Below are positions 19,053-21,728 of a DNA stretch of 64,000 nucleotides, piece after piece; the first letter of the stretch is position 1; the number at the start of each line of letters is the position of its first letter. The position numbers and the translations under genes were made by a program. Location of the stretch: positions 33,972-97,971 of the forward strand of contig JAJQFS010000063.1 in the NCBI GenBank assembly GCA_021200995.1, given 5' to 3'. The stretch comes from Lachnospiraceae bacterium. GTDB lineage: Bacteria; Bacillota; Clostridia; Lachnospirales; Lachnospiraceae. The notes beneath the pieces are model-generated. The model saw only the letters and a program-made list of their open reading frames with translations. It made no database searches and was not told the origin of the DNA.

Positions 19053-19562
19053 GTGGAGAATAACAGAAATATGGAGTCAGAGGGCAAAAAAGAAATGACG
19101 GGCAGAGGCCATGGAGAACGTGGCGGCAGAGAGAGCCGCGGCGGTTATGGAGAGCGTGGCGGACGGGGAGGCCATGGCGGAGGAGGCAGTCCGCGTGGCC
19201 AGATGCTTCAGGAGCGCCTTAATGGGGACGAGACCGCCATTCTGGTGTTCGTGGGGTCTTTAAACTGCATCCGGCATAAGCCCTATATGAGAATCGGGGA
19301 AATGATGCAGGAAGGGAAGGCGGCGTTATTGCGCCCGTCCATGAGCGATTTTTCCAGCGGGAGATATTTAAATCAGATTGTGGACGCGATTGTGGAGTTG
19401 TCCAAAGAGCGTGGGACGAAGCATTTCGTGCTGACCTACGGCTGTCAGCGGGTGATTCTTTCCACGGACGGGGACCTGCTGGTTCAGCAGTTAAAAAATG
19501 AGTATGACATAGATCTGAAGCTGTGGGAGGACTCTCATCTGGAGTTTGGAGATCATGAGTAG
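19053..19562 (+). CDS. Small nitrogenase component-1-like protein (subdomain I only) with an N-terminal Gly/Arg/His-rich tail
   Basis: After the low-complexity N-terminus, the pattern AILVFVGSLNC ... PSMSDFSSGRYL ... TKHFVLTYGCQRVILSTDGD mirrors the first Rossmann-like subdomain of NifD/K/E/N-type proteins (HGPxGC loop, then TC..IGDD strand). The GTG start follows AGGAGG; ATG 19071 is an alternative. Confidence 0.55.
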   Translation: MENNRNMESEGKKEMTGRGHGERGGRESRGGYGERGGRGGHGGGGSPRGQMLQERLNGDETAILVFVGSLNCIRHKPYMRIGEMMQEGKAALLRPSMSDFSSGRYLNQIVDAIVELSKERGTKHFVLTYGCQRVILSTDGDLLVQQLKNEYDIDLKLWEDSHLEFGDHE

Positions 19563-19574
19563 GAGGGGATTGAT

Positions 19575-20906
19575 ATGAAAAGATTATGGAAGGTAATACC
19601 GCCCTGCCTGTCGGACGTGCTGGGCTTTGAGGCAGTGCTGAATGAGACGGAGGGGCTCGGGATTATTGATGATCCGAGCCGGTATAAACCGATCCGGATG
19701 GGACAGGGCGGACAAGCGCATGGCGGCCGGGGAGGAAGACCGGAGGGCCATGGGCCGGGTTTGGATAGCGGCCATGCTTTTGCGGCGAGGGCCGGAGGAG
19801 AGCTTCACGGCCCCGGCGGCTTTGACAGAGCGGCGCGGATGCGCAGCGTGCGCGTCCTGAATTCGGATATCCGTAATGAGGATATTATTACGGGGACGGA
19901 AGCAAAGGTCATGCAGACTTTTGAGAGAGGGATGGAGCAGTATGCGCCCAATTTTATACTGCTCTGTTTAGCGCCTTCCGCTTCCATGATTAATTCTGAC
20001 CTGGAATATGCCGCGGGGAAGATTACCGGGCAGAGCGGCTTGCCAGCCGCGGAGGTGAAAATCGATGGGGAGAAGGATTACCTTTACGGGATCGGAGCCA
20101 CACTGGAGACGCTGGGGCGAATTCTGCTGACACCGCAGGAAACGCTTGAGGGGACTGTTAACCTTCTGGGAGCCAATACGATTGACTGGACAGAGGGCAC
20201 GATTGCGACTGTGGACAGCCTGATTGCCGACGCGGGCTGGCGTGTGCTTTCCCACTGGGGTACGAAGGAGACGACTGAGAATCTGAAAAGAGCGGCCGCG
20301 GCGCAGGTGAACGTGGTGGTCAGCGAGGCAGGGCTGAAGCTGGCGCGATTTATGGAGAGCGAATTTGGCATTCCATATGTGACTGGAGCGCCATTTGGAG
20401 CCAAAAGTGCAGAAAATCTTGCATTACAGCTAAATAAGCACAAAAATGCAGGAACTCATGCAAGAAATACGGAAACACTTAGCGTGTCCGATCTGAACGA
20501 TGCGTCAATTGGCGCAGAAGCTGGTGTATTGAGACAGGAAACTGACGCCCCTGAGATTCTCATCGTGGCGGAACAGTTCATTGCCAATGCCGTGCGCGAA
20601 ACGCTCCTTGCGCACGGACAGCGCAACATCCGCGTCCTGAGCTTTTATGATATGGATCGCACGTATATGCTCCCCGGCGACAAAAAGTTGACAGGGGAAG
20701 ACGATTTCACAGCGCAGGCCAATGTGGATTCTGTGCGTATGATAATCGCTGACCTGGATTACAGTCCGCTGGTGAAAAAGGAAGTGCGGTATATCGGTTT
20801 CCCTGACGGCGGCAGCTTCTCGCCGGTGCATCCGACGGAGAATTTTGATATGACAGGTTCCTTATTGGATTCATGGCTGGCAGAGAAAGGAGTCATACAT
20901 AGATGA
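19575..20906 (+). CDS. Nitrogenase component-1-type (Oxidored_nitro-like) protein with an internal Gly/Arg/His-rich insert
   Basis: AGGAGGGG RBS. Family-like blocks: [57 protein letters not shown]. Its stop overlaps the nifH-like start (ATGA). Confidence 0.7.
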
Positions 20907-21728
20907 GACAGATTGCAATTTACGGCAAAGGCGGCATCGGGAAGTCCACCACTTCCCAGAACATCGCGGCCGCGCTGACGGAAAGAAATAAAAAAACTGA
21001 TGATTGTGGGGTGTGACCCCAAGGCGGACTCAACCCGCCTGATTCTCCATGGGCACGTGAAGCAGACAGTTCTCGACACCATGCGGGAAAAGGACGAGGA
21101 CGAAGTGGAGCTGGACGACTTTCTTTACACCGGCTTCCACGGCATCAAAGCGGTGGAGTCAGGGGGACCGGAGCCGGGTGTGGGCTGCGCCGGCCGCGGC
21201 ATTGTCACCGCCATCAATCTGCTGGAGAATCTGGGGGCGTATACGCCGGACCTGGACTATGTCCTTTATGACGTGCTGGGCGACGTGGTCTGCGGCGGTT
21301 TCGCCATGCCGATCCGGGAAGGGAAAGCAAAAGAGATCTATATCGTCTGTTCCGGGGAGATGATGAGTCTTTACGCCGCCAATAATATCTGTAAGGGGAT
21401 CCGCCGTTATGCCGAGAGCGGCAAAACCAAGCTGGGCGGTATCATCTGTAACTCCCGTCTGGTGGACAACGAGCGGGCGCTTGTCACAGAATTTGCGCAA
21501 AGGCTGAACACGCAGCTACTTTATTTTATTCCAAGGGATAATATCGTCCAGCGCGCGGAGCTGCGCCGCCAGACCGTCTTAGAGTACGCGCCGGATTCGC
21601 AGCAGGCGGACGAATATCGCGCTCTGGCAGCAGCGATTGACATGAATGAGAGCTATTCTGTACCGACGCCGATTTCCAACGATGCGCTGGAAGCGCTTTT
21701 GTTAAAATATGTGCCGGTGGCGGAGTGA
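20903..21728 (+). pseudogene. NifH-type (nitrogenase iron protein-like) ATPase, reading frame broken by one extra base in an A7 run
   Basis: Frame A (20903-21016) gives [31 protein letters not shown] then a stop. Frame B (21000-21728) gives [14 protein letters not shown]... with GVGCAGRG and VVCGGFAMP. Deleting one A from 20990-20996 fuses them into a canonical NifH. Confidence 0.85.

Follow-up and report, generated by a model that had tools for sequence, protein, structure and literature searches.

A nitrogenase-like gene module of Clostridia with a one-domain partner subunit, in a copy that is most likely inactive

Several nitrogenase-like (NFL) systems pair a NifH-type ATPase with a component 1 that is simpler than that of nitrogenase. 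In DPOR (BchL/BchN/BchB, Group V), the component-1 cluster is a simple [4Fe-4S], to which the N subunit contributes three Cys and the B subunit one Asp, and there is no FeMo-cofactor. CfbCD (Group IV-B) is a minimal system with a simple cluster and a reduced component 1, CfbD, which is one homomeric subunit, while Mar (MarBHDK) and isethionate reductase (Groups IV-C and IV-F) act on non-nitrogen substrates, some of them in Clostridia. Divergent genes of this kind also occur in organisms that do not fix nitrogen. In the NifHEN-like genes of Firmicutes, one subunit holds the Cys ligands and its partner lacks them (Dos Santos et al. 2012, PMC3464626). The nifH genes of non-diazotrophic Clostridia ('pseudo-nifH') pass nifH models, are annotated as nitrogenase iron protein, and are abundant in gut metagenomes, where they lead to overestimates of nitrogen fixers (Mise et al. 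2021, PMC8597730).

Here we describe a three-gene module in a 64-kb stretch of DNA from a gut Lachnospiraceae genome (the window, meaning the whole stretch analysed) that resembles each of these systems in part. The best explanation as a whole, which we hold with moderate confidence, is a two-component ATP-dependent reductase of the NFL superfamily with an undescribed architecture, the copy in the window being most likely inactive.

The locus and its two component-1 subunits

The module is laid out as follows.

19053..19562, + strand: small subunit gene, 169 aa, GTG start with an AGGAGGA ribosome-binding site 5' of it
19575..20906, + strand: large subunit gene, 443 aa, Pfam PF00148
20903..21016, + strand: NifH-like gene, first frame, with the P-loop GKGGIGKST and a stop after 37 codons
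20997..21728, + strand: remainder of the NifH-like gene in the +1 frame (242-aa ORF 21000-21728), with switch I, both [4Fe-4S] Cys and switch II

As the preliminary description had it, the genes are co-directional and tightly packed, with 12 nt between the 169-aa and 443-aa genes and the ATG at 20903 overlapping the TGA of the large gene (ATGA). The motifs it quoted are all found in the sequence, and the small and large ORFs are as it gave them; its NifH-type gene, however, consists of two ORFs that can be joined only across a frameshift.

The 443-aa protein had been assigned to the component-1 type, and Pfam Oxidored_nitro (PF00148) matches it over residues 86-288 (2.9e-21; 76 bits against a cut-off of 28.6). 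It has 105 close homologue clusters and one marginal match, and its best solved-structure match has E = 2e-15. An AlphaFold2 model (pLDDT 82) contains three Rossmann-like domains, and Foldseek aligns it with NifEN, BchB, AnfK, NifK and NifD at E-values of 1e-16 to 1e-12, with target-normalised TM-scores of 0.65-0.68 to BchB and ~0.6 to AnfK, NifN and NifK. The large protein is a complete three-domain component-1 subunit of the beta type (BchB/NifK/NifN-like), far from characterised families. Its scores of 20-55 bits, where the NCBIfam cut-offs lie at 268-653, agree with the earlier placement outside Nif/Vnf/Anf, DPOR/COR, CfbCD and Mar. Three features of this subunit stand out.

19605..19607, + strand: Cys11 codon; Cys in 92/97 homologues with a readable N-terminal motif
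19668..19673, + strand: Asp32-Asp33 codons in the loop following strand 1; no variation in any beta-like sequence, distant ones included
19707..19823, + strand: G/R/H-rich disordered insert in domain I (residues 45-83, pLDDT <50)

The large protein was at first thought to lack Cys at the cluster-ligand positions. The IIDDPSRY motif cited for this is present, but the near-invariant Cys11, which had been overlooked, is kept. It is the sole conserved Cys of the protein and, by its pattern and its place in the model, would sit at the first canonical cluster-ligand position; the same position is Phe or Ile in the beta partners of full-length alpha subunits and in a natural fusion. In the loop after strand 1, NifD/K and BchN have a second Cys ligand, BchB has Asp36, and the large subunit has Asp32-Asp33, which by position may correspond to BchB Asp36. 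The G/R/H-rich insert (33% Gly, 14% Arg) varies from 7 to 96 residues across the family and is missing from the beta partners of full-length alpha subunits. Low-complexity tails rich in His, Gly and Arg also occur, and that of locus L023 is very His-rich.

The small subunit carries the following codons of interest.

19266..19268, + strand: Cys72 codon, a proposed cluster ligand after strand 1; Cys in 54/54 homologues covering the site
19332..19334, + strand: Arg94 codon CGC; Cys in 45/58 clusters, Arg in this lineage only
19443..19451, + strand: Cys131-Gln132-Arg133 codons; C131 in 59/59 and W133 in 59/59 clusters

The Pfam check suggested for the three proteins succeeded for the 443-aa protein and the repaired NifH-like protein; the 169-aa protein has no direct match in Pfam, NCBIfam or the sequences of solved structures. 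A deeper profile search and BLASTP nevertheless bear out the idea that it is a free-standing homologue of the Cys-bearing subdomain I. The profile of its family (59 homologue clusters) picks out the first ~110 residues of Oxidored_nitro proteins 370-450 aa long (E from 3.5e-20 to 3e-4), in which the PF00148 match begins at residue ~15-25, and BLASTP aligns it with one protein (P0185) at 35% identity over 100 residues (E = 1e-17). In its AlphaFold2 model, a Rossmann-like core of four strands follows an N-terminal tail (about residues 1-46) that is disordered and rich in G/R; the best superpositions, on ChlN/BchN, are moderate (TM-score 0.48-0.52, rmsd 3.0-3.7 Å), with MarD and AnfD also found, and the Foldseek E-values are all >1e-3.

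Sister architectures clarify what this protein is. The full-length proteins that the profile finds lie in alpha-beta-NifH clusters. Loci L047 and L048 carry a full-length alpha gene, then beta, then NifH; their beta protein and the large protein of the window are homologous from end to end (30% identity, E = 2e-55), and the full-length alpha-like relatives score 22-33 bits on the BchN model against a cut-off of 420. In P0180, small and large are naturally fused and followed by NifH, and the small-like part aligns to the BchN model TIGR01279. The small-family profile has no match in the large family (hhalign E = 0.19). On these sequence relationships, the small protein is a BchN/NifE-type (alpha) partner subunit cut down to its first, Cys-bearing domain, because the sister loci have a full-length alpha at the same place in the order. 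The preliminary description had instead proposed a split component 1. We rejected the small protein as a fragment of the 443-aa protein, given the alpha-beta-NifH sister loci and a 443-aa protein that already holds all three domains; it is a shortened second (alpha-type) subunit.

Invariant residues of the small family include C72 and C131, the latter within a GCQWVILSTD motif. At the C-terminus, HLEFGDHE shows strong conservation, with CHLC in its place in other lineages. In 6/6 cases, a CH(L/I)C C-terminus of the small or alpha subunit goes with Cys in an 'AP[C]' loop of the large protein; the loop has Ser or Val in 30/30 remaining cases, 28 of them with the HLxxGDH motif. This covariation, which comes from few independent lineages, may hint at an interface.

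The survey of gene order that had been suggested found small-large-NifH in 36/36 loci from one-genome-per-species collections, all of them Clostridia, and the one-domain-subunit design is thus conserved in at least 36 Clostridia species. The hosts are non-phototrophic Clostridia of gut, rumen and digester.

The NifH-like gene and the state of this copy

Two homopolymer runs are sites of frameshifts, one in the window and one in a conspecific contig.

20990..20996, + strand: A7 homopolymer, the frameshift site; A6 in L001 and L008, AAAAAG in L009
19296..19299, + strand: G4 run in the small gene; G5 in the conspecific contig L043, frameshifting the gene

The NifH-type gene is spread over two ORFs, a P-loop part of 37 aa, which ends where it does because of the frameshift, and the remaining 242 aa in the +1 frame. 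The P-loop, switches I and II and both [4Fe-4S] Cys are all present in the window, but not in one uninterrupted protein; the preliminary description, which treated this as a single near-canonical NifH gene, missed both the frameshift and the damage to the copy in this genome. Deletion of one A gives a 274-aa NifH-like protein, which occurs letter for letter in another sample (P0230). On PF00142 this repaired protein reaches 414 bits, and on TIGR01287 437 bits (cut-off 394). It scores 389 bits to C. pasteurianum NifH (1cp2), 164 to BchL and 275 to MarH, and 389.3 bits on the CfbC model NF033200, whose cut-off is 402. The gene is intact in the other species' loci that cover it, except L020, and in a conspecific sample.

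Judging from the sequence, the module in this genome is most likely inactive or nearly so. The frameshift in nifH, an intact NifH allele in other strains, and Arg at two conserved positions of the window strain's small subunit (C94R and W133R) together make the copy here probably inactive. The codon for position 94 is TGC in strain L043, and that for position 133 is TGG in L006 and L043.

A functional module in this strain is unlikely, though several observations favour it. It would mean that the A7 run was misassembled, or that it is a leaky or switchable site at which a one-base shift, made by the ribosome or through slippage in transcription, restores the frame. The break is a single base within a homopolymer, and tRNA-Lys re-pairing one base forward on AAA-AAA-A would yield exactly the conserved NifH sequence. 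Elsewhere nifH bears no sign of decay (389 bits to true NifH), and another sample has an intact allele encoding the identical protein. Furthermore, the only other A7 contig differs from the window by 2/11,658 bases and may derive from the same sample, so it does not confirm the frameshift independently; it is possible that the frameshift is an assembly artefact or a phase-variable state. However, an A7 run is short for efficient slippage, and the same strain has both C94R and W133R, the latter at a position that is otherwise Trp in every cluster. Conspecific contigs carry further damage, C72Y in the small subunit of one strain (P0239) and the +G frameshift in the small gene, and together these changes resemble relaxed selection. 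Additionally, the depositor's MAG protein set contains the small and large proteins, and the 242-aa NifH fragment was not found among NCBI proteins. The copy here thus appears to be decaying, which makes this strain unsuited for study of the module.

Proposed cluster site, predicted control and possible function

The conserved Cys of a small-large pair number about four (C72, C94 and C131 of the small subunit, C11 of the large), and this census suggests a simple Fe-S cluster of the DPOR kind rather than N2 fixation. In the mechanism we propose, component 2 would be a near-canonical NifH-type dimer, a P-loop ATPase with a bridging [4Fe-4S] held by two Cys per monomer, and component 1 would consist of the complete beta-type 443-aa subunit and a 169-aa alpha-type subunit with only the first, cluster-binding domain. 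The small subunit would hold the Fe-S cluster, most simply one [4Fe-4S], through Cys72, Cys94 and Cys131, which in its model lie at the C-terminal ends of three adjacent strands, and the large subunit would complete the site across the interface with Cys11 and/or Asp32/Asp33. NifH would dock, hydrolyse ATP and hand single low-potential electrons to the cluster, from which they would pass on to a small-molecule substrate on the large subunit. The ligand set is not fixed, since Cys94 is replaced in 13/58 clusters and Cys11 is absent beside full-length alpha subunits, and a larger cluster is possible because ancestral forms have up to six Cys. A model of the fused protein superimposes poorly on the NifE-N fusion 9i0g_A (691 columns matched, rmsd 18.9 Å), and the predicted relative placement of the subunits therefore need not be NifDK-like.

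That the module is a genuine nitrogenase of an unusual sort, able to fix N2, we regard as close to inconceivable. The NifH-like protein does exceed the nifH equivalog cut-off, and relatives carry the annotation 'nitrogenase iron protein'. The NifD/K pair is absent, however, and the large protein scores 34.6 bits on the nifD model TIGR01282 (cut-off 653) and 30 on the component I alpha model (cut-off 486). Its alignment to C. pasteurianum NifD places Ser (Asn in the family consensus) in the column of the FeMo-cofactor ligand Cys275, and the four or so conserved Cys per pair compare with six P-cluster Cys. Searches of the 64-kb window with profiles of the large family and a NifH query turned up no further copy of either, and no nitrogen-fixation gene was seen among the window ORFs scanned with Pfam. 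With no FeMo-cofactor site, the enzyme would therefore not fix N2, and the module fits the 'pseudo-nifH' class (Mise et al. 2021, PMC8597730).

The region 5' of the module contains two candidate control elements.

18907..18936, + strand: promoter-like site TTGACA-18-TAGGAT with an extended -10 TG; conserved in four close relatives (L001, L008, L009 and L044)
19009..19040, + strand: hairpin or palindrome of 14 bp, perfectly matched, within the conserved 5' leader; leader fold z = -6.1

The hairpin or palindrome ends about 5 nt 5' of the ribosome-binding site and is identical in L001, L006, L008, L009, L043 and L044; the leader has no Rfam match, and the element is a candidate for either an RNA structure or a DNA operator. 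A gene for a MarR-type regulator lies directly 3' of the NifH gene in most lineages (17 loci), and in 7/17 of these loci a single site upstream of the small gene holds the repeat pair TTAANTAA, an apparent operator. Because the MarR gene is directly downstream, the module genes probably form a ligand-inducible operon under predicted MarR control.

Such control fits a small-molecule response better than housekeeping maturation, which bears on a second alternative, namely that the small-large pair and NifH act as a scaffold or maturase like NifEN and build metal clusters, Fe-S or other, for another enzyme or pass them on to it. NifE sequence matches are equal in quality to those of NifD or BchB, the HLEFGDHE (or CHLC) C-terminus of the small protein resembles a metal-binding tail, and scaffold roles have been raised for the NifHEN-like genes of Firmicutes (Dos Santos et al. 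2012, PMC3464626). We nonetheless consider this role very unlikely, as the variable surroundings hold no conserved client enzyme and no NifB-like gene was recognised beside the module in annotated loci.

The neighbourhood bears on the substrate as well. In L014, L015, L017, L018, L029, L040 and L041, the small gene has a Peripla_BP_2 binding-protein gene immediately upstream, and most of these seven loci also hold the FecCD permease and ABC ATPase genes of a metal-chelate transporter. This association, the DPOR subunits as nearest structural matches (BchB; ChlN/BchN), a NifH partner almost at the CfbC cut-off and the His/Gly/Arg-rich tails would all suit an enzyme of the same class that reduces ring double bonds of a tetrapyrrole or other metal-chelate, a cofactor-like molecule either imported or endogenous, like DPOR, COR and CfbCD. 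We judge this substrate class quite unlikely, since the transporter link is confined to one sub-clade and the other loci have MATE or ABC exporters, or unrelated genes, alongside; no tetrapyrrole biosynthesis genes were seen beside the module, upstream of it neither a cobalamin riboswitch nor one of another kind turned up, and the large protein is far from the CfbD model. The upstream neighbour in the window is a true tannase homologue, as had been recognised (455 bits to L. plantarum tannase 3wa6), but the substrate suggested on that basis finds no backing, because tannase adjacency is confined to the window, the near-identical contig L006, and the close relatives L001, L008 and L044.

Returning to the reductase that we favour, we put forward tentatively that the module is the first NFL enzyme whose cluster donor is a single ~115-residue subdomain, which arose by truncation of a full-length alpha and was re-fused to beta in some lineages, and that it serves gut and rumen Clostridia as a MarR-controlled, ATP-driven, low-potential reductase for a small molecule from diet, host or xenobiotics. 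If so, part of the 'pseudo-nifH' signal in gut metagenomes would gain a function as well as the defined partner and testable biochemical unit that the module supplies for some of these genes. The homologous series of alpha-beta-H, truncated-alpha-beta-H and fused forms suggests that a small part of one subunit suffices for a cluster site, which is of interest for how nitrogenase-like enzymes evolved and how minimal their design can be. Work on the module is helped by its small size and by a listed carrier in culture, Pseudoflavonifractor sp. 60 (locus L025), and the adjoining MarR gene with its apparent operator in many species offers a handle on the inducer and hence on the substrate.

Comparison with known nitrogenase-like systems

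DPOR is the closest parallel to the proposed site. Its subunits are the best structural matches, BchB for the large subunit and ChlN/BchN domain I for the small, and the division of ligands, with several Cys on the N-type subunit and few or none plus an acidic residue on the B-type, may be common to both; the three strand-end Cys of the small subunit and the invariant Asp32/Asp33 of the large would match the DPOR pattern by position. Unlike DPOR, the module has an N-type subunit of ~115 structured residues that lacks domains II and III, a NifH partner much nearer true NifH than BchL, non-phototrophic hosts, G/R-rich disordered inserts and the alpha-beta-H gene order. An identity of the large protein with BchB was rejected (TIGR01278, 55.5 bits against a cut-off of 490).

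With CfbCD the module shares the minimal design and a NifH close to the CfbC model, but it has two different component-1 subunits, and its hosts are bacteria without F430 or methanogenesis genes. The large protein was also rejected as CfbD (methanogenesis marker 13; TIGR03282, 19.7 bits against a cut-off of 268). What sets Mar and isethionate reductase apart from the module is that their D and K subunits are full-length, their clusters are of the nitrogenase type and a NifB homologue accompanies them; in annotated module loci no second full-length subunit or NifB-like gene was recognised, and no link to sulfur metabolism was seen. A Mar/Isr identity was rejected, as the large family matches MarD (chains 9fmg_A and 9d9u_A) no better than at 6e-10 and the NifH-like protein is nearer NifH than MarH.

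The literature searched contained no description of a domain-I-only subunit, a small+large fusion or a small-large-NifH module, and no experimental work on any family member was found in it. A 2026 review (PMC13474568) gives Group VI, found in Elusimicrobia, as NflH plus NflD, NflK being optional, and makes no mention of a truncated subunit. The module is an uncharacterised NFL architecture that we consider undescribed, Group VI having been compared by that description. Like the NifHEN-like and 'pseudo-nifH' genes, it joins nifH to divergent component-1 genes in non-diazotrophic Clostridia; it differs from them in that those reports concern full-length alpha/beta pairs or stand-alone nifH (PMC3464626, PMC8597730).

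The module and its state in the window

The module comprises three co-directional genes, encoding a small protein, a large protein and a NifH-like ATPase, and its features in the window are as follows.

19053-19562, + strand: small ORF, 169 aa
19575-20906, + strand: large ORF, 443 aa, separated from the small ORF by a 12-nt gap
20903, + strand: ATG start of the NifH-like gene, overlapping the TGA stop of the large gene
20903-21016, + strand: P-loop part of the NifH-like gene, a 37-aa ORF
21000-21728, + strand: remainder of the NifH-like gene, 242 aa, in the +1 frame

The preliminary description had reported these three genes from the sequence alone. 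Its small and large ORFs were borne out and its motifs are all present in the window sequence; what it overlooked is a frameshift in the NifH-like gene, which is broken at an A7 run (20990-20996). The corresponding site is A6 or AAAAAG in three closely related species, and deletion of one A yields a 274-aa protein that scores 414 bits on Fer4_NifH and 437 bits on the NCBI nifH equivalog model (cut-off 394), with 389 bits to Clostridium pasteurianum NifH versus 275 to MarH and 164 to BchL. A second contig has the frameshift too, but with 2 differences from the window in 11,658 bases it does not count as independent evidence. A protein from another sample (P0230) is identical in sequence to the repaired NifH, which indicates that intact alleles circulate.

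A Lachnospiraceae MAG encodes proteins identical to the small and large proteins over every residue, MCD7863419.1 and MCD7863420.1, and labels them hypothetical. The small protein of the window carries Arg at position 133, where Trp is found in 59/59 homologue clusters, and Arg at position 94, where 45 of 58 clusters have Cys. A conspecific small protein (P0239) has the substitution C72Y, and the small gene of a conspecific contig (L043) contains a +G frameshift. Because several different damaging changes occur in one species, the sequences suggest relaxed selection on the module in the species of the window; alternatively, they may be errors in low-coverage contigs. The copy in the window's genome is probably inactive.

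Homologues of both proteins are numerous, with 105 close clusters and one marginal match for the large protein and 59 clusters for the core of the small protein. When one genome was scanned for each species, the module was located at 36 loci, all in Clostridia, with carriers among Lachnospiraceae, Oscillospiraceae (among them Lawsonibacter and the cultured Pseudoflavonifractor sp. 60, which has an intact module in NZ_QWKI01000057.1), Ruminococcus, Pseudobutyrivibrio and Floccifex; by their record names, these come from gut, rumen and digester. The order small, large, NifH holds in every complete locus, and NifH is interrupted solely in the window together with the contig nearly identical to it, and in a further MAG (L020). 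The flanking genes vary among lineages, so the trio is a self-contained unit.

The small and large proteins as component 1 subunits

The large protein matches Oxidored_nitro (2.9e-21) and falls far under the cut-off of every named family (score/cut-off: BchB 55/490, NifE 54/505, NifD 35/653, CfbD 20/268). Against solved structures, the large-family profile matches NifD (E = 2e-15), NifE (2e-14), BchB (4e-14) and MarD (6e-10). An AlphaFold2 model (mean pLDDT 82) shows three Rossmann-like domains, with residues 45-83 forming a G/R-rich insert that is disordered, and it superimposes best on beta-type (BchB/NifK-type) subunits, with TM-scores of 0.65-0.68 for BchB and about 0.6 for AnfK, NifN and NifK. 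The predicted three-domain fold and its beta-type superposition indicate that the large protein is a whole subunit, and not a component 1 with a piece missing. In the large family, Ser or Asn aligns with the FeMo-cofactor ligand Cys275.

The small and large ORFs of the window are in the same frame, with one TAG and four codons between them, and a single ancestral gene with read-through was considered as their origin. This is ruled out because, in the loci checked, relatives have gaps of 22-102 nt between the two genes, each of which has a ribosome-binding site and a start codon of its own, and because the large protein begins with a conserved MKRLW.

The small protein has no match in Pfam or NCBIfam, nor in a search of solved-structure profiles, and hhalign gave no match between its profile and that of the large family (E = 0.19). 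It is 46-81% identical across its alignment; C72, R74, H75, C131-Q132, the I135-L-S-T-D139 run and H162 are among the invariant residues, and W133 and the remainder of a C-terminal HLEFGDHE motif are nearly invariant. The decisive result came from an exhaustive profile search, in which the small-protein profile also matched the first ~110-130 residues of 370-450-aa proteins (E down to 3.5e-20) that are themselves Oxidored_nitro from residue ~15-25 onward. One of these relationships is visible by BLASTP, with 35% identity between the window small protein and P0185 over 100 residues (E = 1e-17). In the model of the small protein, a tail is disordered and the folded part is a parallel alpha/beta domain of four strands. 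By TM-score and rmsd its best matches are ChlN/BchN (0.48-0.52, 3.0-3.7 Å), MarD and AnfD, all of the alpha (BchN/NifE) type, with weak Foldseek E-values that are all above 1e-3. A complex was also modeled from a fused small and large query with unpaired alignment rows; its superposition on a fused NifEN chain (rmsd 18.9 Å) was uninformative.

P0185 and P0187 are encoded in clusters of the form alpha (431-450 aa), beta (366-375 aa), NifH, in which the beta subunit is homologous to the window large protein over its full length (30% identity, E = 2e-55), and in P0180 (554 aa), followed by NifH, a small-like domain is naturally fused to a large-like protein. By comparison with these sequences, the arrangements form a series (alpha-beta-H, alphaI-beta-H, alphaI::beta-H) in which the window trio is the 'truncated alpha' type, and the existence of a natural fusion is an argument for the two proteins acting as one unit. 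The earlier idea that a cluster-binding module is supplied in trans holds, and the accompanying notion of a 'split component 1' does not: the large protein has all three domains, and the small protein is a truncated alpha subunit.

The variants differ in the placement of disordered G/R/H-rich stretches, some of which are very His-rich in one locus (L023). In the truncated-alpha type these lie in the N-terminal tail of the small protein (window 19053-19190) and the domain I insert of the large protein (19707-19823). Beta partners of full-length alpha subunits, like that of the fusion, lack the G/R-rich insert, and full-length alpha subunits (P0181, P0185, P0187) have a similar G/R/H-rich stretch near the C-terminus. 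The fused variant of the module and a single variant with full-length alpha are each preceded directly by an adh_short (short-chain dehydrogenase) gene:

L045, 4961-5734: adh_short gene
L048, 4026-4811: adh_short gene
L049, 1293-2078: adh_short gene

A putative cluster site between the subunits

In the small-protein model, C72, C94 and C131 come after strands 1, 2 and 3, a topology that would place all three on the same edge of the sheet. The large protein would contribute C11, its sole conserved Cys, which 92 of 97 homologues have where the N-terminal motif can be read. This residue sits in a near-invariant N-terminus that includes GIIDDPSRY and is modeled with a helix at 14-22 and a strand at 28-32; from the pattern and the model, we infer that this N-terminus is the equivalent of the NifD/K 'C..GA...HGPxGC' segment. 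Each small-large pair of the Lachnospiraceae type has C72, C131 and usually C94 from the small protein and C11 from the large protein, and four ligands per pair suggest that one [4Fe-4S] cluster would be held at the small-large interface.

Position 11 is Phe or Ile in the beta partners of full-length alpha and in the fusion. Asp32, Asp33 and Tyr37 of the large protein are invariant even where C11 is missing, which makes an Asp ligand, as in BchB, an alternative. Asp32/33 may be the equivalent of BchB Asp36, an assignment that stays provisional because the first 43 residues of the large protein have no match among solved structures and the N-terminus was not aligned to BchB or NifK even when the G-rich linker was removed from the profile.

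The third ligand position in the large family reads AP-S in 73 clusters and AP-C in 25. Older-looking forms have more Cys, and in these domain I of the alpha or small subunit ends with CH(L/I)C. All six CH(L/I)C forms have Cys in the AP-C loop of the large protein (6/6), and Ser or Val takes its place in every one of the 30 remaining cases, 28 of which have the HLxxGDH motif. This covariation, which spans few independent lineages, suggests that the small subunit packs with its C-terminal tail on the cluster-ligand loop of the large subunit.

Regulation, neighbours and relation to known systems

A MarR-family gene lies directly 3' of NifH in 17 loci, and 7 of these have a single TTAANTAA-N(2-14)-TTAANTAA repeat pair 5' of the small gene, near its promoter and in most cases within about 60 nt of the gene. 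The pair is a likely candidate for the MarR operator and is found at these positions:

L005, 5468-5489: repeat pair
L011, 5494-5515: repeat pair
L024, 3021-3042: repeat pair
L032, 1619-1636: repeat pair
L033, 5563-5584: repeat pair
L037, 5299-5320: repeat pair
L038, 1404-1421: repeat pair

The clade of the window is without the MarR gene and instead has a promoter and a ~110-nt leader (window 18907-19052) that are more conserved than their flanks in four related species. The leader contains one notable feature:

19009-19040: perfect 14-bp hairpin (leader fold z = -6.1)

This hairpin may act as an operator or as cis-regulatory RNA; the leader has no match in Rfam, and no riboswitch was detected 5' of the module in the window or in six loci. 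The sole riboswitch detected was a Moco riboswitch at one locus, in a Lachnospiraceae MAG (L003, 8767-8913; 48.8 bits). It directly follows the module's MarR gene, where it precedes and belongs to the neighbouring modABC and moeA genes.

Other recurrent neighbours of the module are MATE or ABC exporters and, in one sub-clade, a FecCD/Peripla_BP_2-type uptake system. The window's tannase gene is a true tannase homologue, and a substrate linked to it had been raised as speculation; tannase adjoins the module only in the window, in L006, which is almost identical to it, and in the close relatives L001, L008 and L044, and the link is not supported. The flanking 'orphan ATPases' are AAA_14/DUF4143 and ATPase_2/DUF234 proteins (window 15882-17195 and 21864-23279). 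Close relatives differ in where these genes lie relative to the trio, and L044 has one of them inverted, which suggests local rearrangement. A perfect inverted repeat with a 19-bp stem (21832-21872) overlaps a strong promoter-like site (21809-21837) of the ATPase_2/DUF234 gene 3' of nifH. Further along, the window encodes an 878-aa EF-G/Tet(M)-like GTPase (24750-27386; GTP_EFTU, EFG_III, EFG_IV, EFG_C) with a YacP-like NYN nuclease domain at its C-terminus, an architecture shared with L001. Butyrate-type genes (thiolase, acyl-CoA dehydrogenase, ETF) and pectin/uronate genes (UxaC, a mannitol-dehydrogenase-family enzyme, GH28) at 34432-40824 and 45222-52112 are the context of an ordinary Lachnospiraceae chromosome.

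In the literature searched, including a 2026 NFL review (PMC13474568), we found no description of a single-domain subunit, of the small-large fusion or of the module. The module falls in none of the named families compared (Nif/Vnf/Anf, DPOR/COR, CfbCD, Mar/Isr). It is one of the 'pseudo-nifH / NifHEN-like' sets that Dos Santos et al. 2012 (PMC3464626) and Mise et al. 2021 (PMC8597730) noted in Clostridia. It would work like DPOR and CfbCD, with both of which it shares a NifH-type ATPase and, putatively, a component 1 that carries only a cluster.
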